Assembly (NCBI GenBank): GCA_039621445.1
Contig: CP154954.1
Span: 22,518,954 to 22,582,953, forward strand
Length of the DNA: 64,000 bases
Reading direction: 5' to 3'
From: Euglena gracilis
Lineage: Eukaryota
Shown here one piece after another: positions 13,636 through 63,504 of this stretch. Position 1 is the first letter of the stretch, and every line of letters starts with the position of its first letter. The translations under genes were made by a program, and so were the position numbers. A model generated the notes under the pieces. The model was not told where the DNA came from and ran no database searches. It was given only the letters and a program-made list of their open reading frames with translations.

Positions 13636-13847
13636 CTGACAACGTTGGGGGAGGGGGGTGGGAGAGACGCCCGTAAACCGGCCAAAACGAGAGGTCCGCC
13701 AGTCGGGCGCAAATAAAAATAGGGCGAGCTGAAAATTGTGGGCACCCTTATTCCCCAGTGGGTCAAAGACCAAGCAGCAACACTGGCGACCCAAATGCCA
13801 CGCCATAAGCAACTCTCCGTGCCCTCCCTCACAGCATTGGCGCCGAC

Positions 13848-14192
13848 CATACAATTTTTTACCGACCTCCCGGGGGGGTCACTCCACTTTTTTAAAAACC
13901 AGTCAGTCACTCATTTTCAAAAAACCAGCCAGTCACTACCCCCCCCCCCCCCGGGGGGAGGTCGGCCACTCAGAAAAACGGCCAATTTCCAGTCACTTTA
14001 GGCCATTTTAGGCCCAAAAATTTTTTCCGGCGCCTTCGGCGCCGGGGTCACTCAAGCCACTTTTGCCCACCCCTGGCCGACCCCCCCGGGGGGGGGGGGG
14101 GGGAGGGGGTCCGGGCCCAAAACCAGTCAGTCACTCTGAAAAAACCAGTCAGTCACCCCCCCCGGGGGGGACAGTGCTTAAAAAATTGTCTG
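13848..14192. mobile_element. hAT MITE (CAG/TACAATTTTTT ends), 12 nt inside a donor site
   Basis: Perfect TSD GCGCCGAC (13840-47 / 14193-200); internal AACCAGTCAGTCAC repeats. Confidence 0.85.
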
Positions 14193-14204
14193 GCGCCGAC
14201 ACAC

Positions 14205-14305
14205 CGAAGCCAGCCAAGGCCCGAGAGTGCTCGTTGATCGTGGGGTGCCCCGAAAACATGGTGGGCAGAGAGATGCGCCGCCCCCGCTGTGGCGAACCGA
14301 CGGAC
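14205..14305 (-). CDS. Gene 1 exon (SVGSPQRGRRISLPTMFSGHPTINEHSRALAGF)
   Basis: gccccacag acceptor, G|GTGTGT donor; P-x-IN-x-x-SR-x-LA repeat motif; phase 2 to 1. Confidence 0.8.
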
Positions 14306-14815
14306 CTGTGGGGCGTGTGGGGAGGGACCAAACCCGAAACCGAAACTGAGCGGTTGTGGGTGGGTGTGCAGACGTTAGGGGCGCCTGCAAGCTGTGATTG
14401 GCAACATCTCTGGCAAAAAAAAACAACAAATTGCAAGGAGACAGAAAATGATCACAAAACCAACATTGAGGTGTGGCACTCACAGACAGGACCTTTGGAA
14501 TTGATTAATTAATTAGTTGGCCATGAAATTTTTTTGAACTCACCAATGTTTACTCCCATATTGGTCTTAGATTTTTAATTTCCGCGCACATGTTGTGTTA
14601 TTATGTGTACACATGGTGTACATTCAGTTGTGTGCGTGCATGCAAACGCGCAAATGCGTGTCTGCCTACACATACACACACGTGCCATGTGCATTTCCAC
14701 GTGCCACGTGCCATGTGCATTTATGCAACTCTTTGTGAAATCTGGTACAAATGACAGAACTGAGCTGGAACACAATTCAGCTCCACATTGGCCGCGGCAA
14801 GCCTTGCAGACATAC

Positions 14816-14890
14816 CGCGCCTGTTTGGAGGAAGCTGACTTCGCCCGCCGCCTTGCGCTTTGGGCCCTCTGCCGGGGGCTGCCAGGCGGA
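14816..14890 (-). CDS. Gene 1 exon (PPGSPRQRAQSARRRAKSASSKQA)
   Basis: CG|GTATGT donor (phase 2); acceptor cacgcag chosen for phase, so the 5' boundary is uncertain. Confidence 0.6.
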
Positions 14891-15497
14891 CTGCGTGACC
14901 CCTCGGCCAGGGGGGCAACCCCAGTCCAAACAGACAACGGGGGGGGGGTCGGATCTCGGGCCTTGGAGTGCCTGCAATGGAGTGCCTGCAGGCCCCCCCC
15001 CACACCCAGGTGGGGTCGGCACCGCCTTAAAATTCAGCGGCCGACATCGCCCTGCTTGTTCGCAACCCACAACCCTCCCTTACAGTAAAGAACTCACCAA
15101 AAATGCCGATGACACCCCCATTGGGCCGCTCAAGACAAGTTCAGTTTAAGGCTGCCAATCTTCCCTCCTTGGCACTATTGGGTACAAAGGGCACCCTCGG
15201 ATGTGGATTACTTGGTTTGCTGTTTGCTTGCCGCAGCTGCCACACGTTTCAGAAAAGGTGACTTTCTCCCACAGGAATGAGAGGCGAGGACCGGTTAGCA
15301 CCTTGCCCCTCGGGGGTCAACCGCCCTTAAAAGCATCTTAAAAGCACCTCAAAAATATCTCAAATTCATCCGAAAAAAATTACCACGTCTTCGGCGGAGG
15401 GTTTAAAAAAAACCGAAAATATTTCGGGCTGGGCCACTGATGGTGCGGAAAGGGACAGATCCCCTGGGGTAGAGTCTGTGGCCATGGAATCCTTTGC

Positions 15498-15540
15498 CGA
15501 GGGTCCACGGGCGAGTCTGCCAAAGGCTCCGACTCCAAGC
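15498..15540 (-). CDS. Gene 1 exon (LESEPLADSPVDP), probable GC donor
   Basis: catggcag acceptor; CG|GCAAAG donor gives phase 1 to 2. Confidence 0.5.
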
Positions 15541-15964
15541 CTGCCATGTGCAAGGGACTGCTCAAGGGGGCAAAACTCCGCATAAAAGCACCGACATCCA
15601 GCTGTGAGCGTGCATTTATTTGTTGGGAGTTGCAGCCAAATTTTTAAGCAAAAAAAAAGAAAGCCAAGAAAGTTTAACCATTTTAATCCATTTCACCAGT
15701 TGGTCATTTTTGGCCACTCAGATAATTGGTAACTTGACTGCACTTTGGCTGAACCAGATCTAGATTTAGTTGAGTCCACCCCAGGGATACGTTACTGGGG
15801 GCTCCTGCTGAGGGTGGCCTCCAACATCACAAAACCCTGCCCAATGTCAGCGGCGGCAGCCAAAGTCAGCCGGAGGTGAGTATCACAAACATGACACCAG
15901 ATCGTTGAGAGGCATCCGGGGGACACATCATTGATTTCGTTCCTAAAATCGGCATGGTCGACAC

Positions 15965-16010
15965 CCTCGAAGTTGGGGATTGGCAGGGGGGAATTCTCAT
16001 TCTGGACTGT
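15965..16010 (-). CDS. Gene 1 exon (TVQNENSPLPIPNFE)
   Basis: aaccgcag acceptor, G|GTGTCG donor; phase 0 to 1. Confidence 0.55.
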
Positions 16011-21023: not shown

Positions 21024-21314
21024 CAGGCTGTTTTTTTTACCAACCCCGGGGGGTCTGGAGTGCCTTGGGGTGCCTGCCCAGGCAGGCACTACCCCCCCCC
21101 TGGGGGTTGGATTTCGGCCTGTGCCCAGGCACATTCCTTTGAAAATAGGCCATTTTTGGCTCCCGGAGTCTGTGCAAGGGCACCTTTGGCCGTGTGCTCC
21201 CCCCTTAGATGCCGTGTGCCCCCCCCCGGGGGTTGGATTTGGAGTGCCTTGGAGTGCCAGCCCAGACAGGAACCCCCCCGAGGTGGGGTCAGCACCCGAC
21301 TAAAATACAACCTG
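21024..21314. mobile_element. hAT MITE, family A
   Basis: CAGGCTG…CAACCTG; TSD GGCCGGAT/ACCCGGAT. Confidence 0.75.
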
Positions 21315-23855
21315 ACCCGGATCTCCATTTGGTGGCCCTCAGTTTGCAGCTGCAGCCAGAACGCCTGAAGGGGGTCTTAATGCAACACTGTGCTGGGGGA
21401 ATCAACAGTGGGGAGGAGGGGATCAAAAAAAATCAACTATGACGCATTCATATGATTTTTGTTGTTTTAAAATTGTTTCTTTGCTGGTTTGACCTGGGAG
21501 TCGTTGAAGGGCTGAAGAACCCCATCCCGGAGGGCCTAATCAGCACCCCCCCCCCCCCCCGGAAGCTGGCCTCAAGCCACGTATTCACCAACTTGAAAAA
21601 AATGCCCGAATGTCAGCAAAAAAAAATGCAATTCTTGACCTGAAACTTGACCATTTCGCCCAGTATGGCGTGTCTCGTTACTTTCGGAGGCTTGGTGTGT
21701 CTTTAGCACGAGGAAAAACTTCCTTTGTAATGTGCTGGAATGCGTATGAAATTTTTTTCAGAAAGGGAAAAATTTGTTGGTTTAAAAAAATTGATTTTGC
21801 AGAAAATGAAAAATACAAATCTGAGAAAATACATGAAGATGCAGCAGAGTGCGAAAAAAGAAAATTTGAAACATTGAAAATGAAATACTAATATTTGAAA
21901 AATATATTTTCCCCATCTCCAGTGCACAGCGTGGGAAGAAAATCTCTTGCAAACCCGGCTTCTGGCTATGGGGAGTGGGTGGGTCGGACCACCCCTCCCA
22001 AAATCTCGAAAGGAAGGGGGGGTCAGGACAGTCCCCCTTCCACCAATCTCAAAACCCAAAGATGCCTACACATTGGTGAGCACAGCGAAACGGACAAACA
22101 GAGAAATGGCTTGCACAATGGTGGAATTGCAGGGACTGGATTTTGCAAGGGTTTTATCATTGGATGATGATGTCAAAATGTCCAAATGAATTGAAGCGTT
22201 TGTCAAACAGTGAGTTTGCTGTGGTGAATGATTGGAATGGGTCGGCAGCCCCAAACTGAATACATATTTCTTTGAAAGGTTATGAAAGGTTATGCACTCT
22301 GGAACGTTATATCGTGTGCCGGTCATCCTCCCAGAGTTTGCCTCTTGTGCTAAGCTTGCAACCTTGACCCCACTGATACTTTGACTTTGCTGACCCATTT
22401 GCGTTTGGCCTACAAGAGGTTCCTAACGTGCAAACCCCCCAAAATACCCCCCCCCCCGCAGGTTTTCGCATTCGCCCTTGGTCAGGACCAAATACCAGTG
22501 TGGGGGTATTGTAAATTATCAGGAAAATGTTCAAAGTTGTGAACGTTGCGCGGCACTGGGTGAGCCATGTACAGCCCAGGTTGGTCCGCCTATTTACAGA
22601 GGCTTGCAGGAGACGCCGCGCCCGGCAGAACGGGTCATCAAATGGCGTCAACACAGACGACAGGGGGAACAAGGAAGACAAGAGCAGACACACAATCTTC
22701 CGATCCGGCAGGGTGGCTGGAGTCGCACATAGGCCTCAGCTTAAAGACTCCAGGTGGGCCCACTGGCTGGGAATTTTGGAACAACTCCAGAAAGTCACCA
22801 GATGAGGAAAAAAACCAAGGGGGACCCCAGGAACCCCCCACTCCCCGAGGGGAGGGTCCTGGGGTCCCCCTGACTGGGAAAAAATTCGCTTTGGCGCTGC
22901 GCGCCAATGTGGAAATGAGGGTTTTAACACGGTATTTTGTGGATTTTGTTCCCAAAAATTCGAAAAAGTGCAAAAAAAAACAGACATTTCTGGCAGGTTC
23001 CTTCCAGGTTTTTTGTGTGGCAGGAAAATTTTTCCAGTGCTCTGTGCTGGTCACTTGAAAATTTTCCACAAACTGGGGCTGCTAACAGATCGCCTCTTAG
23101 GGGGGTGGTACACTCAAAATTCCACTGGATGCTTTTGGACTGGCTGCAGTCCAGCCACCCCCCCCCCCGCCCCGGAACTGCAAATCCTTAAGCCGATACC
23201 TGGTTGCACAGCAACTGCGGGTCAGCTGAGTCTCGAAATGTCAAAAAATGGGGAAGGTGACCGCCCACGAAAGCGGTTGGGGAGTTGGCCGGGGCGGTTG
23301 GTACCGGCTGGAAGGGTTTGATGGGGAAATTAGCAAAACCCTTCTGGCAAACCGGAAACATCCCCCTGTTGGAGGTTTTTTTGGGCCTGGGTTTTTGGTT
23401 CCGGACCCACCCACCCACCCTCCGGAAGGGAGGGGTGCTTGGGGGGATGCTTTTGGGACGTCAATCACTTCCTCCCCCCCCCCCTGGTCGGTCAGTCACT
23501 CTTGCCACATGGCCAAAAATGGCCAAAAATCAAAGGATTTTGGCCAAAAATTCAAATAATTATAATTTCGGCGCCAGGGGAGCACTTCTGGACAATCCTG
23601 GCCGACCTCACCCCCAGCCCGGCGGGGGGGGGGGGGCTCTGGAGCTAAAAAACCAATCGAACCCCTCGGGGGTGGGGTGGGACACACCTTAAGCAGTGGT
23701 ATGCCCCCACCCCTGTGTCCAACCAACACTTAGGTGGCAAAGTGTGGTCCGAATAGACACGGAGTATCTTTGAAATGACCGCACAAGAGTCCCACCCACC
23801 CTGCCCCGCCCACTGGTTTGGGACAGGATGGCTGCGCCGTCCCCGAACGGCCAAC

Positions 23856-23996
23856 CAACGTCCCGCTGCGGTGGCGGTGCCCCCTTGTCACTGGGGTGGG
23901 AACGTCGACGGGGGGGCCCTGAGAGGGCGGAGGCGAGGCCATCGCAGGGCCCGAGGGAAACGGTAACTGAAAGGCTCCTGGCGGGGTGGGGGACAT
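23856..23996 (-). CDS. Candidate first coding exon of gene 1 (MSPTPPGAFQLPFPSGPAMASPPPSQGPPVDVPTPVTRGHRHRSGTL)
   Basis: gccaccgccATG context, GC-rich, TTG|GTTGGC donor; linkage to the downstream exons is unproven. Confidence 0.4.
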
Positions 23997-26067
23997 GGCG
24001 GTGGCCGGCCAGCCGGTCGGGTTCAAACTTCATTCACTTTCCGTTGAAAAGCCCGTCCGGGACACTGTCAGGACTCGACAACCTGCGATGATAGAGAGTT
24101 GCCAAGGTCTAGAACAGAAGTGACCGTTTCCTGGGGGGCGGGGGGGGGGGGCTCAGCAGCCAGCGTGGCCCGGGGGGGGGGGGGGGGACCCCCCGGCGCT
24201 TGGTCCGGCCATGATTGAAGGTTAGTCCAGGGGCCAAGTTTGCATGTTCAGAATGCATGTTGGCGACCATGTGCAAAGGGCCGAAGGCCAACTGTAGGGG
24301 GGGACACCAAATTTGCATGGAAGGATGAGGGGCCAAGTACCCGGGGAGGGGGTAAACCCCCCCAAAAAATAATACCCCCCGGGTATTATTATTAATTATT
24401 TTTCGCCCGAAGTCCCAGCCCGAGGGGGGAAGGGTATTATTTGGGGATATTTCCCAAATATTCCCGAAATTTTTCAAAGTCCCGTAAGACCCAAAATAGC
24501 ACCCAAAACCCCCCTTTGGGGTCATTTTTTTTTGTACTTTCTCATAAAATTTAGCATTTTTGGAGGCCAGATGATTCAGAAAAATCGATTTTTCCGTAAT
24601 TTGTTGTCAGAGATTGTTATCTTTAATTCAAATTAATTCAAAGATATTCCGTCTATTCGGACCACACTTTGCCACTTAAGTGTTGGTCGGACCTTTGATT
24701 TTTGGCCATTTTCGGCCATGTGGCAAGAGTGACTGACCGACCGGGGGGGGGGGGAGGAAGTGACTGGCTGGCTTTTGAAAGTGGAAAATGCCCCCCCCCC
24801 CCTGGGGTAAGAACAGAGCATACTGCCCATCACCCCCCACCAAAGCAGTATCCAGAGACAATCAACACAGGGGTGAGACTCGACACTGTGAGGACACGGC
24901 TTCTCTTATTCAGCCTTTGAAACTCCATACCCCAAGATGGTTCCCCCAACGTTGACAGGCACAGGGGGCAGATATTTTTTTAAAGCTTTCGTGACCCGGG
25001 GTGGGTGGGTGGGTGGTGGGTCCCAGCCGAGTCCCCCCCCCCTGGTGGGGGGTCGGCCAAGTGGATACCCTGCCGAAGGCAGGGTCTTCCTCTATTTTCG
25101 GCGCAAAGCACCGAAAAATTTTAGACCCAAAATTTGACCCAAAGCGTCCCAAAAGCATCCCTCCAAGCGCCTCCCTCCCCAGACCCCCGGAGGGTGGGTG
25201 GGTGGGTCCGGAACCAAAAACCCAGGTCCAAAAAAAAACCTCCAACAGGGGGATGTTTCCCGTTTGCCAGAAGGGTTTTGATGGGGAATTTCCCCATCAA
25301 ACCCTGCCAGCCGGTACCAACCGCCCCGGCCAACTCCCCAGCCGCTTTCGTGGGCGGTCACCTTCCCCATTTTTTTTGACATTTCGAGACTCAGCTGACC
25401 CGCAGTTGCTGTGCAACCAGGTATCGGCTTAAGGATTTGCAGTTCCGGGGCGGGGGGGGGGCGAGACTTGGTCTGAATTCAATTTTTCAGGTCAAAATCC
25501 GGGTCGTCGGCCCAAGATTGGGGGGGGGGGGTATTAATTCATTAATTCAGTGGCCGAAGTCGGACCCCATGGGGGGGGGGCATCATTTGGGGGGGGGTAT
25601 TATTTGGGGGGTATTATTGGGGGGGGGGGGTATTATTTGGGGGGAGGGTTTACCCAAGCCCCTTCCACGATGGAAGCCCTTGTCTCTCAAACTGCAGCCA
25701 CCCACCCCAAAGCCGAAAAACCCTGACGAAGGTTACAAAAAAAGGGGGACAGCCGCATGGGGAGCCAACAGATCCACCTTCCACTTCCACTAACAAAAAA
25801 ACCAGTCACCCACTTCCACCCCCCCAGGGTCGGTCTAGCCACACACGGCCGACAATGACTCAAAATCCATGCGGTTTGGCCAAAGCCCCCACCCACAAAA
25901 CTTCAAGTTCAAAAATTTCCCTTCGGTGCAGGGTGGCCACTTTTGGTCAATCCTGACCGACCTACCTCCCCCCCGGGGGGGGGGGGGTTCCAAAAGCCAG
26001 TCAATCACGAAAAAAAACACTCGGCTACCCATCCCCAGGAGGGGTCAGACACACTTTTTGCAACGGT

Positions 26068-26809: not shown

Positions 26810-27152
26810 CAGGCTGCTTTTTACCAACCCCGGGGGGGAGGGGGGTCCGGAGTGCCTGTGAGCGCCTGCCCAGGCAGGCACTACCCCCCCCCCGGGGGGG
26901 TCGGATTTGGCCTGTGGCCCAGGCACATTCCTTTGAAAATAGGCCATTTTTGGCTCCCCGGCGCCTTCGGCGCCGAGTCTATGCTAGGGCACTTTTGGTC
27001 GTGTGCCCAACCCCTCCGGGGGGGGGGGGGTTGGGCACACGACCAAAAGTGCCCTAGCACTAGGGTCGGATTTGGAGTGCCTTGGGGTGCCTGCCCAGGC
27101 AGGCACCCCCCCCCCCCGGGGTGGGGTCGGCACCCGACTAAAATACAGCCTG
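26810..27152. mobile_element. hAT MITE, family A (CAGGCTG ends)
   Basis: Perfect TSD ATTGTGTT; homologous to 21024-21314 and 47401-47683. Confidence 0.85.
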
Positions 27153-29141: not shown

Positions 29142-29174
29142 CTTTCCCACTCACATACCCACATTTGTTGAAAC

Positions 29175-29445
29175 CAGGTTTTTTTAAGACCGGGGGGAAG
29201 GGAGGTCCCCCCCACCCTCTGGGGGGGGGGGGCCCGCCCCAAGAGGGGGGTCCCGGGTGACCCAACCCACTTTTCCCCGAAAAGGCCAAAAGATCGCGAA
29301 AAATGCCAAAATAGCACCTTTTCAAAAAATTTCGGCGCCTTCGGCACCGAAAAGTATCCCACGGCCCCTGGGGGACCCCGGGGGGGGGGGGGGGGGGTCG
29401 GCTGGACCCCCCCCCGGGGTTCCACGACAAAAAAAATATCCCCTG
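29175..29445. mobile_element. hAT MITE, family B
   Basis: Perfect TSD GTTGAAAC; CAGG…CCTG ends. Confidence 0.85.
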
Positions 29446-29708
29446 GTTGAAACCCACCCATGCACCCCCCTCCCCGGTCGACCCACCCACCCAACCACTG
29501 AAAACCTGCCCAAAAACCGACCGAAAATTTTTATATTTTTTAATTTTGTTTTTTTTTAAATGGCAGGCCTTCAGCCAGGTTGGACAGAGGGTCAAACGCC
29601 CCAAAATACACACCCACTGAGGTCAAACAATACTAGATCACCTGAGAGGAGGCTTAATAACCCCCCCTCCACACACACATATATATGCATATATATACAC
29701 ATATATAC

Positions 29709-29710
<2 letters not shown>

Positions 29711-29739
<29 letters not shown>

Positions 29740-30011
29740 TGTATGTATGTATGTATGTATGTATGTATGTATGTATGTATGTATGTATGTATGTATGTAT
29801 GTATGTATGTATGTATGTATGTATGTATGTATGTATGTATGTATGTATGTATGTATGTATGTATGTATGTATGTATGTATGTATGTATGTATGTATGTAT
29901 GTATGTATGTATGTATGTATGTATGTATGTATGTATGTATGTATGTATGTATGTATGTATGTATGTATGTATGTATGTATGTATGTATGTATGTATGTAT
30001 GTATGTATGTA
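29711..30011. repeat. (GTAT)n microsatellite, ~300 bp
   Basis: Seen directly. Confidence 0.97.
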
Positions 30012-30015
30012 CATA

Positions 30016-39300: not shown

Positions 39301-42032
39301 ATGCCTTTAGGGGTGCATTTGGTCTGTGAGACACTTCCGGAGATAATGCACGTTTTGCACGAGGTGATTTGAAAAAACTCGAAGTCCAGTTGCTCGCGAC
39401 TGAAAAAAAGATTCCGGGAACCGGGCCGGGGTCATGGTGATAATCCGACGGTTCCCCAGGTGGCCCCGACCCAGGGAGGAGGGAGGGGGAGGTTCACTCT
39501 TACTCATAAAGGGATAAGAGCTCAACAACCCCCGACTGATAACCCCCCCCGTCGGGCGGACCAACCAAACCTTGACTTATAAGCCCCCCAGGGAAAGAAA
39601 AAATGAAAAGCCGCCGGGGACGATTTTTTCGGCCGCAAACCACCCAAAAAACTGATTTGGCGATTTTTTAAATGATCGTTTTTCGACCCCCCCCCCGCCC
39701 CAGGGCAGAACGGGATGGCCTAGTGGGGGGGGGGGTCGACCTCCCCCATCCACCACAGCATTTTCACCGATTTCGGGAAAACGGGGATTTTGGCCAGAAA
39801 TTTTTTTGAAATTTTTTTTGAAAAATGAACCCAAAACACATGATTGATTATTTGATGGAAAAACACATTTTTTCACAAAAAATCTCAAAAATTTCAGGGT
39901 TAAAAATTGGTGCTTTTCAGGGGGGGGAACGAAGGTCAAAAAAAGTGGAAGAATTTTGGCACAGTCAAATTTTATTGACATTTTTTATCGTTGAAATTTT
40001 GTGGACTTTCAATGGGATTTTTTGCTTGAAAACCTCCCAAAATCAAAATTTTGAGAAAATGAATTTTTGGAAGGTGTGAAAAAATGGGGTTTTGGGTGGT
40101 TTTTGGGGGGACCCCCTATCCTATATGGGTCCCAAAATGGGTCAAAAAAAAACACCCAGAGCCGAAGGCCGGAAACATTTTTTCGGGTCCAAAAATTGGT
40201 GCTCCCGGAAATACGGGAAGAGGTCCCACCATGCAGGGGGTGGGGGGGGTCGACCCCCCTACCCACCACCCTGGCTGTTCGGCGGTTCTGCCCTGCCCTG
40301 CCCTGCCCTCCCCCCCCCAGACCACTCCTTAGTGTGTATCCAAGATACACAAGTATACACAAATTTTCTTTTGCCGATACACAGGGGAACACAAAAAAAT
40401 TTTTTGGTGAACACAGGATACACAAAAATTTTTGTGGATACACAAATCCAATTTCGGAATACACAAAAAATATGGGTCGATGTGTTGACACCATTGCTAC
40501 AAAATTCTGCGGACATTGGCCCCGGCGCAACCCGAAGCGTGGCAGGGAATCTCAACCTGTGCTGTGGTTGGGGGTGGGACGCTACTCCCTCGTGCGGCGT
40601 TTGCAGAGCCCCGGATGCAATTGCCACACCCATACCCCGGATCACCTGTTTTTTGATTTGTTTTTTGATTTGTTTTGTTTGTTTTTTTATTTGTTTTTTC
40701 AAAACAGGTGCAAAAATCGACGAAATGGACAAAAGGAAAAATCAACACATGCTAGAGGCAGGCTCGCCGAATTGCCTCTTGGCATCATTTTGCAGCTCCA
40801 ACAGAGGTCGGAGTTTTGTGTAGGCAAGACCGTTCCTGGCCATGCACAAAACAGTGCGGAGCATCACCTTCACTTTCGGAATCACAGAATTTGGCAATGA
40901 GATGATCGCATGGGACATGGGCACGTTTGATCGATTGGATAGACCTTGTGCAGCAATGTGGTATGCTCCGTCCTCGTGTGAACATTTGGGAACGAATGCA
41001 CTTTCGTTGGGAGAGCCAAAGCATTTTTCGTTTTGCCAATGCCAATCACCTTGGGGTGTTGTCGAAAAGCATGGCACGTAGCACACCACGTTCCAATCGC
41101 TGGGTCAAAACAAAGCCACTTTCGATTGTTTTTCTAACTGGATTGAAACCTCTTCTCCCTTTTCTCTCTTACGCCCAGGCAATTTGATTTTCTTGTTCGG
41201 TGGGGGGTTCAAAGAACTGGATGAATCTCCAGGGAGCGACTGGGAGCTGCCGCTTGAAGAGTCCTCCGTCTCCGCCCGCTCCCGAGAGGAAGTGAAAGAA
41301 GACAAGCACATTTGCTTCATGTGTACAAGAATCGCACATGCTTCTCCGCAGCATGTGCGGAGAAGCATGTGGAGAAGATGCAGAGGGAGGACAATTACAA
41401 ATAACACAGAAAAATGGGGATACACAGGAATACACAATTTTTTTGGCAATGTACAGGGGAACACAAAAATTTTTAAGATGATCCACAAGCAGGGGTTTTT
41501 TTAAGACCGGGGGGGGGGGTCCCCCCCACCCACCCCCCCCCCTGGGGGGGGCCCCCCGGGGGGGGGGGGGGGAGGGGGGTCCGGGGGACCCACAAAAAAA
41601 TGGCCGAAAAATCGCGAAAAGTGCTAAAAATAGAATTTTTTCGGCGCCTGCGGCGCCGAAAAGTATATCCCACCCCCCTCCGGGGGGTACCCCCCCCCGG
41701 GGGGGGGGGGGGGGTCCGGCGGACCACCCCCCCCACCCCCCCCCCCCCCGGGGGTCCAAACTTAAAAAAATCCCTGACCACAAGGGAATTATACATAATT
41801 TTTTTTTTGCCGATATGCCCCAAGGAGTGGTCTGCCCCCCCCCCCATTTTTGGCCCAAAACCCATGACCCGGAAACCCTGTTTTTGAGCGGAAAATGAGC
41901 GTTTTCCCACCCTCCCCTCAGCCCCCCGTTTTTGGCCAGAAACCCATGCATTTTGGGTCATTTCCGGGTCAAAAAAGTCGAAAAATCGGGAAAAAAATGC
42001 CGCACCGCCGGGCCGCTGACGACCTCAAACAT
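36394..42032 (-). CDS. Gene 3, core of a multi-exon hypothetical gene: exons 42032-42006, 38444-38405, 37964-37918, 36672-36577, 36469-36394
   Basis: AG acceptors and GT/GC donors chain in phase to MFEVVSGPA-VGPQCRTFFALIA-V-RNLRTAWRPPATLWE-CLERAAPHWHGGAQRPKRLSPSCLTPRRAIWQ-RASQIMMRDLNALDCEFFGSRTSPP; no family recognised. Confidence 0.45.
40318..41834 (-). mobile_element. hAT deletion derivative with a TTF-Zn-finger/ZNF862-like N-terminal remnant
   Basis: 13-bp TIR CAGACCACTCCTT, C8 flanks, GATACAC subterminal repeats; fragments …KVMLRTVLCMARNGLAYTKLRPLLELQ. Confidence 0.7.
41490..41776. mobile_element. hAT MITE, family B (CAGG-Tn-AAGACC), nested
   Basis: TSD TCCACAAG/ACCACAAG; CAGGG…CCCTG ends. 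Confidence 0.8.
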
Positions 42033-45184: not shown

Positions 45185-45452
45185 CAGGGTTTTTTTTTTA
45201 AGACCGGGGGAGGCCCACCCACCCCCTCCCTGGGAGCCCCCCCCCCCGGAGTCCCAGGAGTCCCTGGGAGTCCCGGGGGACCCATGCACCTTCCCCCGAA
45301 AATGGCCCAAAAATCACGAAAAATGCTGAAATAGCACCTTCAAAACTTTTTGGTGCCTTCGGCGCCAAAAAGGATAAAAACCCTGGCTTACCCCGGGGGG
45401 CCACCCGACCCCCCTCCACCCCGGGGGTCCAAGACTGGAAAAAAAGCCCCCG
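45185..45452. mobile_element. hAT MITE, family B
   Basis: CAGGGTTTTTTTTTTAAGACC start; TSD GCTCAGCC/GCTTGGCC. Confidence 0.7.
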
Positions 45453-46208: not shown

Positions 46209-46947
46209 TACCCCGCCCCCCCCCCTATGTCCAATGACCGGTAACCACTGTCCTCTGACCGGGGGGGTGGTCGTTGGACATAGGGTAAACTCCCCCACTT
46301 ATAAACCCCCCGGGGTTAGTAGGATCCGGTTTGGTTGGTCGGCCGAAGGGGGGGGTTAGTAAGTGGGGGGGGGGGTTATAAGTCCCGGAATTGTTGGTGA
46401 AAATCCGAACCCAAAAATGACCCCGAAACCCCCCAAATTGGCAATTTTTGGCAAATTTGGTCAAAAATGGCATTTTTGATGATGGTCGATCTCAAAAAAT
46501 TGCCAAAAAATCAGTTTTTGGGTGGTTTTTTTTTGCGGCCGAAAAAAATCGTCCCCGGCGGCTTTCATTTTTCTTCCCCGAAGGGGGGGGTTTATAAGTC
46601 CCGGTTTGGTTGGTCGGCCCGAGGGGGGGGTTAGTAAGTGGGGGGGTTAGTAAGTGGGGGGGGGGGGGGGGCGTTGGACATGGGGTCAAAAAAAAGTTGG
46701 TGAGTACCCAGGTCCCTACCCACCCAAAAATGCCCAAATTTTCCCTTCCGGCGCTTTGCGCCGAAAATTTTGGGCAATTTTGACAAATTTTTGTCCAAAA
46801 AGTGTCAAAAATGGCATTTTGGCCAAAATTTTTCTTCCCGGCGCTTCACGCCGGGACCAAAAATTTGGTCAAACCTCCGAAAAGGTGTCCTCTGACCGGG
46901 GGGGCGGTCATTGGGCATAGGGGGGTCGTTGGACATAGGGGGGGGTA
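46209..46947. mobile_element. TA-flanked MITE, same family as 51511-52507
   Basis: TACn-TATGTCCAATGACC…GGTCGTTGGACATAGn-TA. Confidence 0.75.
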
Positions 46948-47400: not shown

Positions 47401-47683
47401 CAGGCTGTTTTTTTTACCAACCCTGGGGTGCCTGCCCAGGCAGGCATTACCCCCCCCCTGGGGAATCGGATTTTGGCCTGTGCCCAGGCACATTCCTTTA
47501 AAAATTGGCCATTTTTTTTGGCTCCCCGGGTCCGAAGGCGCCGGGGTCTGTGCTAGGGCACTTTTGGCCGTGTGCCCTACCCCCCCCCCCGCCGGGGAGG
47601 GGTCAGATCGGGAGTGCCTTGGAGTGCCTGCCCAGGCAGGCACCCCCCAGGGTGGGGTCGGCACTCGACTAAAAAACAGCCTG
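47401..47683. mobile_element. hAT MITE, family A
   Basis: CAGGCTGTTTTTT…AAAAAACAGCCTG; TSD ATCTACAT/ATCTAACAT. Confidence 0.8.
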
Positions 47684-47726: not shown

Positions 47727-47887
<161 letters not shown>

Positions 47888-48329
47888 CATCTATCTATCT
47901 TCTGCCTCTCTGTCCATCCATTTGTATCAATCCGTCTGTCAAAATAAACAAATACACACACACACATGTGTGTGTGTGTGTGTGTGTAGGAGGCTCAGTA
48001 TTCCCATATTTCAGAAGCCTTCATGCAACAGGAGATACAAAAAAACATAGCTTTCTGGGTCTCTCCTTTTTACCCTGAAACTCAACTCAAACTCAAATCA
48101 AAATGCAACTCTCTTTCGTCAAACTCACTTCCACCAAATAAAATCAAAACAGCCACATTTTCACCAAAAAAAGAAAAATAAGAAAATAATCAAATGTGTG
48201 CTCCCTCCGCTGGTTGGGTTGTGGAGAGCCAAATGAAAGCAAATGACAATGCTGTCTGGCAGAACACCGTCCGGACGTTGGCGCTGCACCAACTCACTCA
48301 CACAAGACCATTCGCGGCAACGAGGGGTT

Positions 48330-51510: not shown

Positions 51511-52507
51511 TACCTCCCCCCCCCCTTGTCCAACGACCACTGAACCCCCCCCCACCTATAAAACCCCCGGGGGTTTAATGCATCCGGTTTGGTTGGTCGG
51601 CCGAAGGGGGGGGGTTATAAGTGGGGGGTTTATAGGTCCCGGAATTGTTGGTGAAAATCTGACCCCCCCCCCAAATGACCCCGAAACCCCCCCAAATTGA
51701 CAATTTTTGGCAAATTTGGTCAAAAATGGCATTTTTGATGATGGTAGGTGTCAAAAAAATGCCAAAAAAATAGTTTTTGGGTGGTTTGCAGCCGAAAAAA
51801 TCGTCCCCGGCGGCTTTCATTTTTCTTCCCCGAAGGGTTTATAGGTCCCGGTTTGGTTGGTCGGCCCGAGGGGGGGGGTTATAGGTGGGGGGGGGTTATA
51901 GGTGGGGGGGGTTTATAAGTGGGGGGGGGGGGTTAATGTTCGTCTCTGACCAGGGGGCGGTCGCTAAAATGGCCAATGTTCGTCTCCGACCAGGGGGGGT
52001 GGTCGGTAGACAAGCGGGGTGGCCCCCAAATCGGAGGGAAATTTACCATAGATGGGGGTATATGGTTATTTTTGGGCTGTTTTTGGCCATTTATGCTATT
52101 TCTTGACTACAGTTGGCCACTTTTGGCCATTTTTGGACATTTTTTGGGCGCTTTTGGGAATTTTTAGGCATTTTTGACCGCTTTTCGCCATGTTTGGTCG
52201 CTTTTGGCCACTTTTGGCAACTGTTGGCCACACTTTGGCCCCCTTTGCCCATTTTTGGCCACTTTAGGCTGCTTTTGGTTATTTTTAGCCATATTTGCCT
52301 ATTTTTGCTATTTTTTGGCAACTTTTTGGGCACCTTTGGCCATCCCTCGGCCATTTTAGGCCATTTTGGGTTACTTTTGACTGTTTTTAGCCAACTTTTA
52401 GCAATTTTGGCCGAACCAACATCGGATACAAAAAGATCGTCTCTGACCGGGGGGGGGGGGGGGTCGTTAGACAAGCCCGGTCGTTGGACAAGGGGGGGGG
52501 GGAGGTA
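51511..52507. mobile_element. TA-flanked MITE
   Basis: TIR TACCTCn-TTGTCCAACGACC; body homologous to 46209-46947 and 9530-9740. Confidence 0.75.
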
Positions 52508-52736: not shown

Positions 52737-53327
52737 CAGGCTTCTTTTTAAGACCCCCAGGGGGGAGGGGGGGGGTCCCCCCCACCCACCCAGGGTGGCG
52801 CGGGCCCCCCCCCCGGGGGGGGGACCCCCCCAAAATCGGGCCCGTTAAAGGCAATTTTCAAAAATTTTCGGCGCTTCGCGCCGAAAAGGTATACCCAGCG
52901 CCTCCGGCGCGGGCCCCCCCCGGGGGGGGGGGGGGGGTCCGGCGCGGGACCCCCCCCCCCGGGGGGGGTCCGGCCCAGACCCACCCACCCACCCCCCCGG
53001 GGGGGCACCCACCCCCCACCCCGGGGGGGGGGGGGTCAGGTGACTTAAAAAGAAGCCTGGTCAGGCAGGCTTCTTTTTAAGACCCCCGGGGGGGAGGGGG
53101 GGGCCCCCCCACCCACCAAGGGTGGTGCGGGACCCCCCCGGGGGGGACCCCCCCCAAAATCGGGCCCGTTAAAGGCAATTTTCAAAAATTTTCGGCGCTT
53201 CGCGCCGAAAGGTTATACCCGACACCTCCAGTGCGGGACCCCCCCTGTGGGGGGGGGTCCGGCCCGGAACCACCAACCCCCCCCCCTCCCCCCCCCGGGG
53301 GGGTCTTCTGACTTAAAAAGAAGCCTG
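52737..53327. mobile_element. Tandem dimer of family-B hAT MITE (52737-53059, 53066-53327)
   Basis: TIR CAGGCTTCTTTTTAAG; outer TSD TCATCAGG; partial TSD GTCAGG between the copies. Confidence 0.85.
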
Positions 53328-54114
53328 TCATCAGGTTCCCGCTTTAATCTTAACCTCAAGGCAAGGTACTGATCCTAATTTTTGTGAAATGCTTCGATCC
53401 TGTCACTGGAGAGATAGGTTCCAAACTTCTTCATTCTCAATCCATACACTCTCCAAGCCACCCGACACTTACAAATTTCCAACCTGCCTATAAAAACTCT
53501 GCCATGTTCACAGATTTAGGTGATAAAGGTGAGGAACCAGCAACTCTATTATCGCATTTCTTTCTTTCAAAGTTCCAAGGTAACCTATGTGGACAACGAT
53601 GAGAAACACTGTATTGCTGTAACAAATGCTTTGAGGAAGCTTGGCAAGGTTGGATGGGTTTTTCATTACCAAGCCATTGAAAAACAATTCAACAGACTAA
53701 AAGCTTTAAAAGCACGGAATTGTCTTAAAGAAACTGGCACTCTCTTAATGGAAGATAGTTTATAAGCTCTCTCTGCGGAGAATGTTAGAAGTTTTTTATA
53801 ATGGAATTCAATGCATTTTTTACGAACAACAATGTTTTCTTCAGAAGCACTTTTGGGCTTGGGTCAAATAACTGGATAGCTTGGGGCTTTAAGGAGATAT
53901 TTCTTTTTATAAGGCCTCGTCGTAATGCGACATTTATGATATATTCAATGCAGATGATAACGTTTTTAGTTGGATAGATTCCTTTCGGAGCATTTATGGG
54001 AGAATTTGGGTTATTCAGATTCTGAAGAAGAATAGAACCCATGCCATCGAATATTCTCAACAGAATCGTATGTGCATGTTCATACAAATGTTATATTACA
54101 TCATGTTATATGTC

Positions 54115-54304
54115 ATGTATGTATGTATGTATGTATGCATGTATGTATGTATGTATGTATGTATGTATGTATGTATGTATGTATGTATGTATGTATGTAT
54201 GTATGTATGTATGTATGTATGTATGTATGTATGTATGTATGTATGTATGTATGTATGTATGTATGTATGTATGTATGTATGTATGTATGTATGTATGTAT
54301 GTAT
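54115..54304. repeat. (GTAT)n microsatellite
   Basis: Seen directly. Confidence 0.97.
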
Positions 54305-55742: not shown

Positions 55743-55881
<139 letters not shown>

Positions 55882-56221: not shown

Positions 56222-56954
56222 CAGGGTTTACCACCGGTTCGTGCTAGGGAGGGGGAAATCCGGTTCGTGATTGTTCGTCATTGTTCGTGATTGTTCGTGA
56301 TTATTTGTGATTGTTCGTGCTTCCAAAAAACCCCCCAGTTTTACGTTTTCCTTGGTGAAATAGGTGATTCATCTTGGACTTTGGCTTCTTGTGGCCTCTT
56401 TTAATCTAAATATTCAGGTCAATGGGGAAAGAATTGTTTATCCTTGGGGAAAGAAATTGTTTATCTACCCCCAATAAACATCTTGCTGACAATATGGCAA
56501 GTACAAAAATGGAGGACAAATCTCTATGACGACACACAAGACGGTTCCTAGAGGCTGAAATTCGATTGCTGCCCCCCCCCCAGTCCAAAGAACACCAAAA
56601 TGGCTAACGTGTCGGTCCCAGGATGCAATATGTCGCTTTGCATATGTCTTCTCGGCCCAGTGCACTGAAATATGGCAAACACTGTACCACATTTCCGAAC
56701 CCACCAAACTGAAAAAGGTGACAACAAGGGGGGGAAATCAAACAAGACAGGTATGACACCTGGGCAGCACGCTTTTGAGGAGTCATCTTGCCACCTCTCT
56801 TCCATGATCTTCTCTCTTTGGTTGATTGAACAACGCCGTCATTCTCAGAAGAAGACATTTCTTCAAAAGGTGACGAAAAAATCGGTTCGTGATTGTTCGC
56901 GATTGTTCGTGATTGTTCGTGATTGTTCGTGGCACAAACCGGTGAAAACCCCTG
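56222..56954 (-). mobile_element. Non-autonomous hAT derivative carrying a CGGBP1-like Zn-finger remnant
   Basis: CAGGGTTT…AAAACCCCTG ends, ATCTTTG flanking duplication, (GATTGTTCGT)n subterminal arrays; internal TPQKRAAQ…MWYSVCHISVHWAEKTYAKRHIAS. Confidence 0.75.
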
Positions 56955-58022: not shown

Positions 58023-58637
58023 CTGGAGAGGAGGGACAGCGGGAAATACGTTGGATGTGCGAGCCAGGTCGAATGGCGGAGGGGGCGGATCAGGGACGGT
58101 CAGGGCAGAACGGGAAGGCCTGGTGGGGGGAGTCGACCCCCCACCCACCACAGCATTTTCACATATTTTTTTAACAAATCCACCTGGCGCCGAAGGTGCC
58201 GGGAAAATATTCTGGGGTCGAAAATTGGTGCTCCCGGAATTACGGGAGGTGGTGGGGGTGGTCGACCCCCCCCCACCACCCTGGCTGTTTGGCCAATTCC
58301 CGTTCTGCCCTGGGGACGGTGGTCATGGGCTGGGATCGGAAATGAAAGAGAGTATTGGCTGGGGAGGTTGACGGCATTTGCAATCCTCAGGGACAGGAAA
58401 TGTGTGGCTCGCCCTTTTCTGTTTGCCTTGCTGGCTTGGAGGGGGAGGTCAGTGTCATGCAGGATCACGGTGCCTGTGGGGCATCGCTGGATGGAGGCAG
58501 AACCCTCTTCAACAAGGCAGTGCATTGGACGCTGTTGCAAACACGTGCACACCCACACCCACACCCACACTCACAGCTATGTCAACCCACCCACCCACCG
58601 AGCCACCCACGCATAAACAGACACAGAAAACAGACAT

Positions 58638-58670
<33 letters not shown>

Positions 58671-58734
58671 CCAGAAAACCATACCTACATTGGGCCCAAA
58701 CCAACCCCTCCTGAACTTGGAGCTCTGGAGGGGC

Positions 58735-58934
58735 CTGGGAGCCCCGGCGAAGCACAGCAGCACCACCGACACGTTCTCGCCGCAGGAGCGGGCGGCGGCC
58801 TCCATCAGCAGCGCGTGGGCGACCACGAGGGGGTCCTCGATGAGGAGGTAGTCCGACTGCTGCTCGACGGGGAGGAGGGGCGGTTTGTGGCCGAAGGAGC
58901 CGTCCTTGCTGCTGTCCTTCAGCTCCTTCAGGTC
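58735..58934 (-). CDS. Gene 2 exon resembling the C-terminal part of a PP2C/PPM-type phosphatase domain (…EDPLVVAHALLMEAAARSCGENVSVVLLCF)
   Basis: ctgcccccag acceptor, extreme GC3 bias; resembles the PP2C 'dp..aa..Lv..Al.rgs.DNitvvvv' terminal motif; donor position uncertain. Confidence 0.7.
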
Positions 58935-58980
58935 CTGGGGGCAGCGGGGCTGGCTGGGGTTGGCTGGGGCGGCACGGGAA

Positions 58981-61112
58981 CAGGCACCTATGGTCACTTC
59001 CCATTTTGGTGCTCTGGTCGGCCCTGGTCGGCCCTGGTCGGCAAATAGTCGGCCATAGGTGGGGGTATCCGTCACAGAAAAAAATGTGAAGGGATGCAAT
59101 GATTTTCTGAATTGTCTCGCCAAGATCAAAAGGAAGTGCCCCATAAGCTGAGCCATCAGAGCACAAAACAAAAATGCAAAGGTCAATGTGCGGCTCTTCA
59201 CGCAGAGATGTCATACAAGCTCTTGTTCATGTAAATAAAGGCTAAAGAGGTGAGCGTCGTATCAGACATATTCAAACGATCCGATGTTTGAATGGCAAAA
59301 AAGCTGGTATGAAAAACAATTTTTGACGGTATCGAAAAATTCAATCATTTGCATCCTCATTCGTACCAGCCTTTTGTGTGACCGAGCAGTGAGAAATATC
59401 GCTCTATTTGAGCAGATGAACGTGGGGCCTGCAGATGGGCCATGGCAACAGGTGCAAGCGTGGGAAAATAAGCGATGCGGAACCAAACCATTGCTCACGA
59501 CCCAAATGTTGGAACCACAATGGCCCCCTTCTCACCAGCGGTGATTCTGCCACACGTTCCAAAAGAATGGCTGACCCCACTTTGGCAAGAGATGCACAAC
59601 CACCCCACATTTCATTCCAAACCAACGAAGGAATGGTAAGTTTGTGACATCCACCAGCTGATGTGACCAGCTGTGGAAGATGGTGGAGGTTGTTGGGAAA
59701 GCAGAGTGATATAACGTTCCCACTCTGTGGCATTAACCAGCGGAACGCGCTCACACATCACCTTCGTGGGTGACATCCTGCTTGTCTGCAAATGCGACTT
59801 TGACGTGCATGGTCAAAAATATCCCAATCATTTCAATTTGACGTTGCACCATGACACAATGCATTTCATTTTGGTGCACAGGTCAGAAAGTCCTTCCAGT
59901 GTGATGAGCCGGAGTGTTTGGGTGTCAAAAAAACGTGCATGGTTGGACAAAAGGCAAGGAGAGCTTTCGCAGTGTTGATGTCCGAGCCCTTCACGGTTTT
60001 CACCAAGATGTTGTCCATCTTGTCAACGATCGCCTACAATGCAAACATAATGAGCGAGGGGAAAATGGCTTTGGCCTTGGATAAACCAGGACCTTTCATG
60101 ATGTCCCTGAGCTTATGAACGCCTGTGGACACATACAAACAAGGACATCACACAAGAATGAATGTTATGCCATCGGTCATTACGTGGGGTACGTGGGTCC
60201 CTCGTAGGTTGATAGGATCGGGAATTTGAACCTCTTCACCATCCAGCCGGACATATTTCTCAAAGAACTTTCTCAGCAACGTTTTTTCACCATTGTCCTT
60301 TGCTTTTAATAATTTTTCAAGAGGAATATTTGCGGCAGCGAATGCAGCAACCAAATCTTTCTTGAATTGCTCCTCCTTGTTTCCTTTGGAAACAAAATGG
60401 TCCAGAGTCCCTTTAGTCTTTTCTGGGGGGTCTCGATAGCCTCTGTGAGCGGCTTTGCTTCCAAAGCACTTTGAACCTTGAGGGAAAATTGACCAAATTG
60501 TATTTTTTTGCACACAATAGCACCTGAATGATGATGTTTTGTAAAACCGAATTCACAGCGACTTGAGAAACAGGAGCAGGCATTGATTCTTCACGATCCT
60601 TCCGTTTTTTTACCTTCTTGGAGTGTTCACTCTCCAAAAATGGTCTGTCTGGCCCAATTCCTTTGCAATATCCATAGCAATGCTGCTTCAAAGCGCTTGT
60701 TGTGGGTACATACGACCTTGCGCAAACGGTGCAATAAACTTTGCCTACACAGAGAAGCAGACAAGAAACAAGAGCGTTACCTTTGGCTCACCTGGATCAT
60801 TGCTGTCCGCTTCAATGCCGACCATCCCATCTGCCTCCGCCCAAGCGCCCATTGGGCCACAGTCCGTGTGGAGGCATGATTCTTCGCCATTGGCAAAAGC
60901 TGGAGAACAAAGACAAACAAAAGTGATCCAGTGCCTTGCAAAGCCCAGGCGGCCCAGAGGGAAAGCTTCCTTCATCCATTCCCCTTCGGCCGGCCAACCA
61001 CATGCAAGTCGGCCCTGGTCGGCCCTGGTCGGAACCCCCACCTACGGGGGTCCTGAAAATCATAGTTGCCCGTGGTCGGCCCTGGTCGGCCCTGGTCGGA
61101 CGTAGGGGCCTG
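58981..61112 (-). mobile_element. hAT-superfamily DNA transposon (decayed, 2132 bp)
   Basis: Perfect 8-bp TSD CACGGGAA (58973-80 / 61113-20); TIRs CAGGCACCTA / CAGGCCCCTA; subterminal (GGTCGGCCCT)n repeats at both ends. Confidence 0.9.
59400..60975 (-). pseudogene. Disrupted CGGBP1-like hAT transposase
   Basis: Zn-finger GKVYCTVCARSYVPTTSALKQHC followed by FKKDLVAAFAAANIPLEKL…LRKFFEKY…IPDPINLR; frameshifts and stops; short GT-AG introns. Confidence 0.7.
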
Positions 61113-61975
61113 CACGGGAAGGTCTGGGGGTGGGGTCAAAACCTTTGGGTGTCTGGTCACACGGGACCTTCCAGACCTTCCAGACCTGTGTGACCTCACA
61201 CGGGTCTGGAAGGTCCTGTGAGACCCGTGTGACATCCACCAGGCTCCCGCTGGTACCTTCTCTCTGGCCTGTGGCCCAGCCAGCCGGTTGAACTCCCCCC
61301 CGTGGGGGGGCTTTTGAAAGCACTTGCTTGCGAACCAAATGACAAACAATGCACAGGGGTTGTGAAAAGCAGACCCTTTTGCAGGGGGAGGGGGGGTCAA
61401 ACAGGAATGGGAAGCCTTGAGGGGGGGGGGGGAGGGTCCGGACCCCCCCATCCTCCCTCGAAACTGAAGGAGGCTGTGAAAATTTGGTTTTGCGAACCGG
61501 TCGCAAAGTCCGGATACAAGGCCAAAAGAAGTCAAAAATCCCTGATTCTTCGTGGAAAATAAATCCAAAAAATACACATTTTTGAATTTTTTGAACACTT
61601 TTTGTGTGGAAAACACCAAAATGTCAAAAAAAATGTGCAACTGCTCAAAAATGAGGGAAAGGGGCATTTGTTGCTCCTTTTTCAGTGAGTAGCGCCAGAA
61701 GAAAAAACTTTGCTATTTTTGCAACCTGCCGAGGGGGGGGGTCCGGACCCTCCCAACATCTGGGGGGGGGGGGGGGCAGATCCACCCACCACCTTAGTCC
61801 CCAGGGGAGGGGGGGCTCCGGACCCCCCCCCTGCCACCTACCTCAAAACCAAAGGGCTTCCCATCTATCCCTGGGGTCAAATGTGCAATGTGGATTTTTC
61901 CGTTGAGGCTCTGGCATATCGCACCAGTCCTCTTCTGACTGCTCTCCTTTCACATCACCTTGCAGAGTTGGTGTA

Positions 61976-62205
61976 CAGGGTTTTTTTTTAAGACCAGAGG
62001 GTCCCCCCCCCACCAACCCGCTGGGGGGTCCTGGTGGGGTCCTGGGGTCACTTTTCCCCAAAAATGGCCAAAAAATCGCGAAAAATGCTAAAAATAGCAC
62101 GGCACCAAAAAGTATCCCCCCTGGGGGAACCTCCCCCGGGGGAGGGGGCTCAGCCGGACCCAACCACCCCCCCCCCTGGGGGTCTAAGACTAAAAAAAAC
62201 CCCTG
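61976..62205. mobile_element. hAT MITE, family B
   Basis: CAGGGTTTT…AAAACCCTG; TSD TTGGTGTA/TTGGTGAT. Confidence 0.75.
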
Positions 62206-63504
62206 TTGGTGATTCAGCCCCCCCCCTCTGGCCTCCATTGAGGGAAGTTGTCTCAATGCCAGTGCCCCCCCCCAATTATGAACACCATTCTGCCCCCCCC
62301 CCCCAGCTCACCAACCCCTGCCCGCCCTGGGGGCTGAACGGCAATCAGAAACCCCATGAGCGTACTGCCATACACACATGGCTGCTTGGGATAACACATT
62401 GGCAAAATGTGTGGGATCAGGAAAATAAAAATCAACACTTATGAATGGGTGATGCGAAAGATTTTGTGGGAACTCTGCTGAGTTGCTGCCGGGGGGGGGG
62501 GGGAGTGGTGACTGGATCCCCCCAGGGGGTCCGGTTTTAGAAGGCAGTTGTTCTCAAGGCTGTCGCAACAATAAGAAGGGGGGCAGTCCAAAATTTCTTT
62601 TGAAATTGTGGAAAATTTGTGGAAATTTGGGGGAAAAACAAGAAAAATTGATATTGGGAGTGTACACATTTCTGCTGGAGGGGCTTTCGCCTCCTCCTCT
62701 GGTTTTTTTCATTTTGCAACATTAGTGTAAGCTTTGCTTTCTCACCCCCCCCAGAAAACACACATGATTTTTTACCATGTCACAGCATTCGTTGGCTGAA
62801 AAACCCAAAAAAGGAAAAAAAGAAATTGACGAAAAGTTCAGGTCAGAATGTGGAATATGTCTATGTGGAATTTGTCAAGTCGAAATTATTTCTGGGCAGA
62901 AATTAAAAAAAAAACCTTAAAAATGCTAAAAACTAAATGCCAAAATTTGCAAACTTTGGAAAACTTGCAACCAAGTGACAAAAAAGGCACCTGGGTTGGA
63001 ACATGAAACATTCAAGGAATGGCCGGATGAAAGGAGGGAATCAAAGGAGGAAAAGAAAAATTAAATTTTGGAAAAATTGTAAAAATTTGCTGAAAATGGC
63101 GGAATTTGCAGAAAATTGCGAAATCTGCGAAAAATAACCCCTGCAGGGTCCCATGGCTAGAAAAGGGGGGGGGAGACGGGTGTTGGGGTCACCTGACCAG
63201 AACCCAAAAACGGGAGTAAAAGCATGACTCCAGCTGGGTTAGGATTTGTCGACCAAAATTTTAAAACCTCAAAAACCTTCAAAAAATGCCACTTTGGCCA
63301 TTTTAACCCATTTTCAACTTTCAAAGTTGCGACGAGACTTTATCAGTCCAGCCCAGGCGAAGCCGGCGAAGCCAGGCCCAACTGTATTTCTACTGACCCC
63401 CCCCTCCAGGGGGAGGTCCGCAGCCCAGCAGGGAGGTGCTAACTGGGGAGGTGCAAGCTGGAACGCCCCCCCCCCCGACTAGGAGAGTGAGGAACCAATT
63501 TGGC

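Follow-up and report, generated by a model that had tools for sequence, protein, structure and literature searches.

The origin of the nonconventional introns of euglenids and the mechanism of their removal have been an open question since the 1990s. A CAG at intron positions +4 to +6, a CTG at −8 to −6 and Y/R (pyrimidine/purine) junctions, the slash marking the cut, are in print (PMC11282704; PMC6221363), and about 4,500 nonconventional introns of Euglena gracilis show CCAGG at +3 to +7 and CCTG at −9 to −6 (PMC11170887). Knock-in experiments have set the splicing code as 5'-N3CDG...CH'GN5-6/R-3', with a donor spacer of strictly 3 nt and an acceptor spacer of 5 or 6 nt, and wholly synthetic introns of 50 bp that follow it undergo splicing (Nomura et al. 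2025, PMC12501133). [quoted passage not shown] Nearly all of these elements end in CAGG...CCTG and are flanked by 8-bp target-site duplications (TSDs), so that the 3-nt and 5-nt spacers of the intron code add up to one TSD copy. We lean, if only slightly, toward insertions of MITEs of the hAT superfamily as the progenitors of the euglenid nonconventional introns.

A transposon origin of introns is not in itself a new idea, as the sequence-only reading of the window, made from its letters before the present analysis, had acknowledged; transposon-derived introns are well known, and a MITE origin of the nonconventional introns has been proposed since 2013. In E. agilis, the nonconventional class accounts for 71.8% of some 650,000 introns, and 84.4% of introns are 'slidable', since their junctions carry direct repeats, and were left out before the motif analysis (PMC12501133). 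Like base preferences have been described at both junctions (PMC4770533, PMC6221363), and the introns are excised as full-length circular RNA (PMC11282704, PMC12621601). As to their origin, the available portions of two recent papers speak only of 'MITE-like' elements with 'TSD-like' repeats and state neither the superfamily nor the length of the TSD (PMC12501133, PMC11282704). In the open full-text literature of PMC and bioRxiv, we came across no paper in which hAT is named or the 3+5 spacers are identified with a TSD of 8 bp; a single paper there, a survey of barley MITEs, contains the terms 'nonconventional introns' and 'hAT' together. The window contributes the transposon side of the argument only, and the idea is well supported by the published numbers. 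If the source is hAT, a single cause would account for three hitherto unexplained facts, namely spacers of 3 and 5 nt, base preferences that are identical at both junctions and the widespread 'slidable' repeats, and euglenids would possess a natural host system by which the RNA-level effects of one superfamily of transposons are neutralized. The idea gives sharp predictions that are cheap to pursue on existing data.

An 8-bp TSD combined with CAG-type termini is a hallmark of hAT transposons, whose terminal inverted repeats (TIRs) are short (about 10-25 bp) and start with CAG or TAG; both of these traits hold generally across the superfamily, beyond euglenozoans. The window elements share with the hAT MITEs of plants, animals and fungi the 8-bp TSD, the short TIRs starting with CAG, the lack of coding capacity, the presence in multiple copies and a transposase-bearing relative nearby. 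They differ from known hAT MITEs in their palindromic interiors of G-runs and C-runs, in terminal four bases that are uniformly CAGG/CCTG in otherwise unrelated families, and in a transposase family without a Pfam match over the parts tested. With the euglenid nonconventional introns, they have in common the offsets of CAGG and CCTG, the terminal stem and the direct repeats at the junctions; their lengths, 200-2100 bp, fall inside the published range, and the G/C-run inverted repeats of the window resemble those described for euglenozoan introns. The difference is that the window copies lie mostly in non-coding DNA and are known here from DNA alone. Giroux et al. are said to have described in 1994 how maize Ds, which is a hAT element, is spliced from host transcripts. 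Removal of Ds relies on cryptic sites of the spliceosome and as a rule leaves a scar. Ds is likewise an exonic hAT insertion removed at the RNA level, whereas the process proposed here would be an exact loss of the element and one TSD copy through a dedicated code. The introners and other transposon-derived spliceosomal introns of Micromonas, Aureococcus and dinoflagellates present a further parallel, in that a DNA transposon with TIRs and TSDs becomes an intron and the TSD helps to define the removed segment (PMC11282704). The spliceosome excises these introns at sites of the GT/AG type, which the element and the TSD help to make; in the process proposed here, by contrast, the cuts would be set by a fixed distance from the paired CAG:CTG, and the machinery is probably non-spliceosomal.

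The sequence-only reading had counted more than ten CAG...CTG elements with 8-bp TSDs. We found twelve, and CAGG...CCTG termini are present in 11 of these; the element at 13848 starts with CAT instead (CATAC.../...GTCTG, CAG-type at one end only), and 6 of the 12 TSDs are imperfect. The five TSDs that had been reported as perfect (at 13848, 26810, 29175, 52737 and 58981) are all real, a sixth, GGGACGGT, flanks 58101-58312, and the limits that had been given for the whole system, 13840 and 62213, mark where the TSDs of the first and the last element have their outer edges. The elements are as follows.

13848..14192, element with TIRs, 345 bp; perfect 8-bp TSD GCGCCGAC (13840-13847 and 14193-14200)
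21024..21314, family A MITE, 291 bp; CAGG...CCTG ends; TSD 6/8 (GGCCGGAT / ACCCGGAT)
26810..27152, family A MITE, 343 bp; CAGG...CCTG ends; perfect TSD ATTGTGTT
29175..29445, family B MITE, 271 bp; CAGG...CCTG ends; perfect TSD GTTGAAAC
39701..40295, family C element, 595 bp; TIR starting CAGGGCAGAAC; TSD 7/8, in C-rich surroundings
41490..41776, family B MITE, 287 bp; TSD 7/8 (TCCACAAG / ACCACAAG); nested in a candidate element at 40318-41834
45185..45385, family B-related MITE, 201 bp; TSD 6/8; right end uncertain
47401..47683, family A MITE, 283 bp; CAGG...CCTG ends; TSD 5/8 (ATCTACAT / ATCTAACA), which a 1-nt indel would fit
52737..53327, family B head-to-tail dimer; one perfect TSD TCATCAGG around the whole dimer
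58101..58312, family C MITE, 212 bp; TIR 14/14; perfect TSD GGGACGGT
58981..61112, minus strand, hAT-like element, 2132 bp; CAGGC... TIR, perfect TSD CACGGGAA, decayed transposase gene
61976..62205, family B MITE, 230 bp; TSD 6/8 (TTGGTGTA / TTGGTGAT)

BLAST comparisons within the window assign most of the elements to three families, namely family A with three copies (21024, 26810 and 47401; 85-89% identity), family B with six (29175, 41490, 45185, both halves of 52737-53327, and 61976; 62-90% identity) and family C with two (39701 and 58101; 78% identity). The MITEs are 201-595 bp long, non-coding and multi-copy (2-6 copies per family), with both TIR and TSD present and with interiors that are palindromes of G-runs and C-runs. 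TIR identity across the elements is 10-14 of 14, except that it was taken over the first 12 nt in 58981-61112 (10/12), and the TIRs of the different families diverge past the first 4-5 bases. In the copy at 45185, the homology to family B runs on to about 45449, past the assigned right end at 45385. The halves of the dimer (52737-53059 and 53066-53327) are 90% identical and are joined by GTCAGG, and the dimer may have moved as a unit or may be the product of an aberrant transposition. This 6-nt linker is similar to the final six bases of the TSD TCATCAGG that surrounds the dimer. The candidate host of the nested family B copy is the following.

40318..41834, candidate host element, 1517 bp; CAGACC... 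TIR 13/14; poly-C flanks, TSD uninformative

The 8-bp register of the duplications is sharply defined. Flanks of the twelve elements agree at 85 of 96 positions (8/8 in six elements, 7/8 in two, 6/8 in three and 5/8 in one). When the boundaries are moved by 1-3 nt, the agreement falls to 24-35 of 96; in registers 3-13 except 8, it is 19-36%, and none of the twelve has a perfect flank match in any register of at least 4 other than 8. Because the twelve-element set was partly chosen by TSD score, we also scanned, without selection, every CAG...CTG pair in the window with a TIR of at least 11/14 and a separation of 40-4000 bp, 178 pairs in all. The 8-bp TSD is perfect in 4 of these pairs and reaches at least 7/8 in 6 and at least 6/8 in 11; the 6 pairs with at least 7/8 compare with about 0.11 expected, and no such pair was obtained in 30 block shuffles. 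The perfect matches in registers 5-7 of the scan come from the poly-C flank of 40318-41834, from a 6-bp match at 59668-61188 and from one further element.

56222..56954, CAGGG...CCCTG element, 733 bp; 7-bp direct repeat (ATCTTTG)

This element has 10-bp tandem repeats inside, near each end, and splicing by the 3+5 rule would leave it with a 1-nt deficit. The solo ends at 7193, 8146, 15633 and 49044 have, in the window scan, no partner that would give an 8-bp TSD. The elements of the window inserted each with an 8-bp TSD, nearly all of them ended in CAGG...CCTG, and they comprise at least three non-autonomous families and one decayed transposase copy.

When the TSD is split after its fifth base, the CAGG and CCTG of the elements fall at +4 to +7 and at −9 to −6, exactly as in the E. 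gracilis introns cited above. The sequence-only reading had given the positions of CAG and CTG and the Y/R junctions, and these rules are the ones found in print (PMC11282704, PMC6221363); its arithmetic, 3+5=8, agrees with the 3-nt and 5-6-nt spacers of the genetically defined code (PMC12501133). Among the 24 element-orientations of the window, N3-CDG...CH'G-N5/R is satisfied in 17, and a purine stands at the exon-start position in 18 (P = 0.011 against 0.5). It had also been noticed that the perfect TSDs read Y/R at the 5/3 split in at least one orientation; this observation is correct for all six but weak, with 8 of all 12 elements against 5.25 expected (P about 0.10). Position 6 of the TSD is a purine in 10 of the 12 elements, and the other base counts, from the same small sample, include a pyrimidine at position 2 in 9/12, a pyrimidine at position 3 in 8/12 and A at position 7 in 6/12. 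The target preference of hAT transposons is weakly palindromic, nTnnnnAn. Since an insertion duplicates its target site, mirrored base preferences are predicted at the two junctions. In the predicted RNA fold of 58093-58320, a terminal stem with CAG:CUG among its pairs closes the structure and leaves the TSD halves as unpaired overhangs (z = −5.9); that of 29167-29453 has a closing stem with a z of just −2.1. In the available literature, the sole known strain-polymorphic nonconventional intron, intron 4 of gapC in E. agilis ACOI 323, carries at its two junctions 'eight nucleotide direct repeats', which exceed in length the repeats of the other introns studied (PMC4770533).

Taking these lines of evidence together, we infer, from the geometry of the sequence and the published splicing rules, the following course of events. 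A hAT transposase would insert CAGG...CCTG-ended elements with a staggered 8-bp duplication of the target. In the transcript of an exonic copy, the RNA would fold on the inverted repeats, and an excision activity would set its cuts 3 nt in front of the paired CAG and 5 nt behind the CTG. The element and 3+5=8 nt, that is, one TSD copy, would be removed, probably as a circle, such that the pre-insertion exon sequence would be regained in the mRNA. Because the termini are symmetric, removal would work in either orientation, as long as the transcribed strand has a purine at TSD position 6. A broader form of the proposal is that most euglenid nonconventional introns descend from hAT-family MITEs, that the code is an RNA-level eraser of the element and one 8-bp TSD in either orientation, and that a transposase preference for a purine at TSD position 6 supplies the exon-start purine; we see the chances for and against this broader form as evenly balanced.

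Tips of the CAG type and TSDs of 8 bp occur in hAT generally, whereas the code is limited to euglenozoans; it is therefore probable that the code took shape around the hAT ends and not vice versa. The reverse order would have the code in place first, with code-fitting ends tolerated in genes, so that elements with CAGG...CCTG termini and 8-bp TSDs became enriched, and with introns derived from several unrelated element types. This order finds some support in the divergence of the TIRs past the first 4-5 bases, as if only the code-bearing tip were constrained, and in the element with the 7-bp repeat, which has the same tip. However, general hAT traits call for no special selection, and the copies in non-coding context have unchanged tips, so that we regard adaptation of the transposons to a preexisting code as quite improbable.

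Another alternative is that the window holds ordinary hAT MITEs whose likeness to the intron code is coincidental. The introns would then have arisen by other routes, for example from different families of elements or through double-strand-break repair at short microhomologies, and the need of the splicing machinery for CAG and CTG would be unrelated to transposon ends. Several observations weigh against the descent of the introns from hAT MITEs, and some of them favor coincidence. The authors who reported the gapC repeat ascribe its 8 nt to double-strand-break repair (Milanowski et al. 2016, PMC4770533). The code covers 61.2% of the annotated nonconventional introns, leaving 38.8% outside it, and it allows a 6-nt 3' spacer; the intron motifs have been called 'relatively weakly conserved' (PMC12501133). 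Within the window, the 7-bp repeat of 56222-56954 is a real exception to the 8-bp rule, the element at 13848 starts with CAT, and position 8 of the TSD is C in 4/12 elements, which is no enrichment, unlike the published cytosine at intron position +3 and exon position 3. Most copies have non-coding surroundings and look non-exonic; when the element and one TSD copy were removed in silico, none of the twelve gave a convincing continuity of the open reading frame (ORF) or of third-position G+C, and the status of the window copies as introns is a prediction from DNA. Further points of the same kind concern the single copy beside an exon and the transposase and are given with these below. Nevertheless, coincidence needs four independent matches: the four-base CAGG/CCTG termini, spacers that sum to 8, 8-nt repeats in the sole new intron on record, and the duplicated junction preferences. 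We therefore consider coincidence unlikely, although by no means far-fetched, and continue to favor the hAT MITEs as the intron source. The interpretation given in the sequence-only reading is accordingly plausible and partly supported, with the support coming from the literature alone.

The copy at 58981-61112 lies beside a coding exon and is the one for which an exonic insertion could be considered in some detail. Such an insertion was rejected: codon periodicity begins only about 46 nt past the element and is preceded by a C-rich tract whose last two bases are AG, and this arrangement makes an intronic position the simpler and better reading, which adds to the points against exonic, spliced-out copies in the window. 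The open frame across the in silico junction is uninformative, two of the three upstream minus-strand frames being open for more than 160 codons. The candidate exon itself, at about 58933-58690 on the minus strand, just downstream of the hAT copy, appears strongly coding (third-position G+C 0.95-1.0). Its three nearest named matches in the ESM Atlas are clusters of the PP2C family (0.86-0.89), which serves as a lead only. The candidate exon had no Pfam match, a word-based protein search with the exon region 58512-59210 gave no homologue in the length class searched, and a motif search with regular expressions found no further PP2C exons in the window.

The superfamily of the elements was assessed mainly on the transposase remnants inside 58981-61112, which are collinear from 60890 to 59360 along the minus strand.

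60890-60440, minus strand, N-terminal region with Cys/His finger
60430-60085, minus strand, 'NIPL' region; tblastn E down to 1e-30 (2.5e-34 in a laxer run)
60052-59999, minus strand, mutated DETDD region with an in-frame stop
59494-59360, minus strand, short ORF with the hAT C-terminal motif

The region 60890-60052 (minus strand) is homologous to 33 representative proteins (P0001-P0033), with E values down to 8.6e-26 in phmmer and 1e-30 in tblastn. These relatives have in common a Cys/His finger, an 'NIPLxKL' block and the DETDDPR and CWAHLL motifs; the family carries no name in the databases searched, and the ten relatives scanned contained no Pfam domain. Word-based protein searches with the transposase ORF and with the relative P0021 as queries gave no matches. 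The short C-terminal ORF (59360-59494, minus strand) resembles the Pfam domain Dimer_Tnp_hAT (PF05699) at profile positions 30-60 of 84, with an E of 0.027 and a score of 14.7 bits, below the cut-off of 21.4. When compared with 177,635 PDB sequences, it gave four matches, all of them C-termini of the Hermes transposase, with weak E values of 0.33-0.44. An AlphaFold model of P0021 is poor (mean pLDDT, the predicted local distance difference test, 58); in a Foldseek search with this model, the top five PDB chains are Hermes, the best with an E of 4.5e-3, above the 0.001 line, and a probability of 0.91. VIA-align of the same model against Hermes gave a Z of 4.5-5.2 over 93-105 residues, equal to that of retroviral integrases. 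As evidence specific to Hermes, this alignment was rejected, because integrases and a small ribosomal protein were not separated from Hermes, and the modeled structure points to an RNase H-like core only.

Each hAT match alone is below the usual thresholds (14.7 against 21.4 bits; pLDDT 58; Z about 5), and this is a point against the assignment; the claim of the sequence-only reading is supported in that the elements are real transposons with TIRs and TSDs, of probable hAT type. Duplications of 8 bp are also made by P, Merlin and some Mutator-like groups. One of these superfamilies could thus be the source in place of hAT, in keeping with the weakness of every single match and with the absence of a Pfam domain from the ten relatives scanned, and the argument from geometry would survive such a reassignment. 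Against it, three methods, each of them weak, lead to hAT (Hermes) at homologous positions and to nothing else, and the termini begin with CAG. We therefore hold the membership of the elements and the transposase in hAT to be highly probable and that in another 8-bp superfamily to be very improbable.

The sequence-only reading had further assigned to the window a 'source-type transposase'. A hAT-like transposase remnant is indeed present, although with an in-frame stop, and its element has only CAGGC, the first five bases of the TIR, in common with one MITE family. Because this copy is decayed and the TIRs are alike in these five bases only, 58981-61112 is not shown to be the source that mobilizes the MITEs, a further point on the negative side of the balance.

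The relatives P0001-P0033 are transposase-like proteins from short ENA/Logan contigs. Several of them have in-frame insertions, unrelated to one another, all at one alignment position after a conserved EG, and others are without these insertions. To judge from the alignment, this pattern has the look of a short intron that gene calling on genomic DNA failed to remove.

Two pattern scans of metagenomes for elements of this kind yielded 0 matches in one case and, in the other, 18 matches that are alike only in the pattern itself. The Pfam search of 190 window ORFs of at least 110 amino acids returned no real domain, ten candidate exons had no Pfam match, and Rfam and tRNA scans of the window gave no matches.

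Among other repeats, an apparent element of 2161 bp at 23230-25390 with a 'TSD' TCAGCTGA was rejected, since it belongs to a long palindrome and is not an element with TIR and TSD. This palindrome, 23159-25461, is a fold-back structure with arms of about 600 bp (23159-23758 and 24651-25461) around a center of about 900 bp; the arms are 95-100% complementary in six collinear blocks, and the 'TSD' TCAGCTGA is itself palindromic. The window as a whole has a G+C content of about 50%, and short repeats of G-runs and C-runs are abundant. A further repeat family (46292-46663, 51549-51911, 9521-9715 and 39529-39669), 77-86% identical, consists of G-runs between short AT-rich words. Long microsatellites are present as well, namely (TATG)75 at 29710-30011, (TATG)49 at 54109-54304, (CTGT)48 at 47727-47914, (GT)68 at 55745-55880 and (CAA)28 at 4894-4976, and the two TATG microsatellites have a common flank that is 97% identical over 70 nt.

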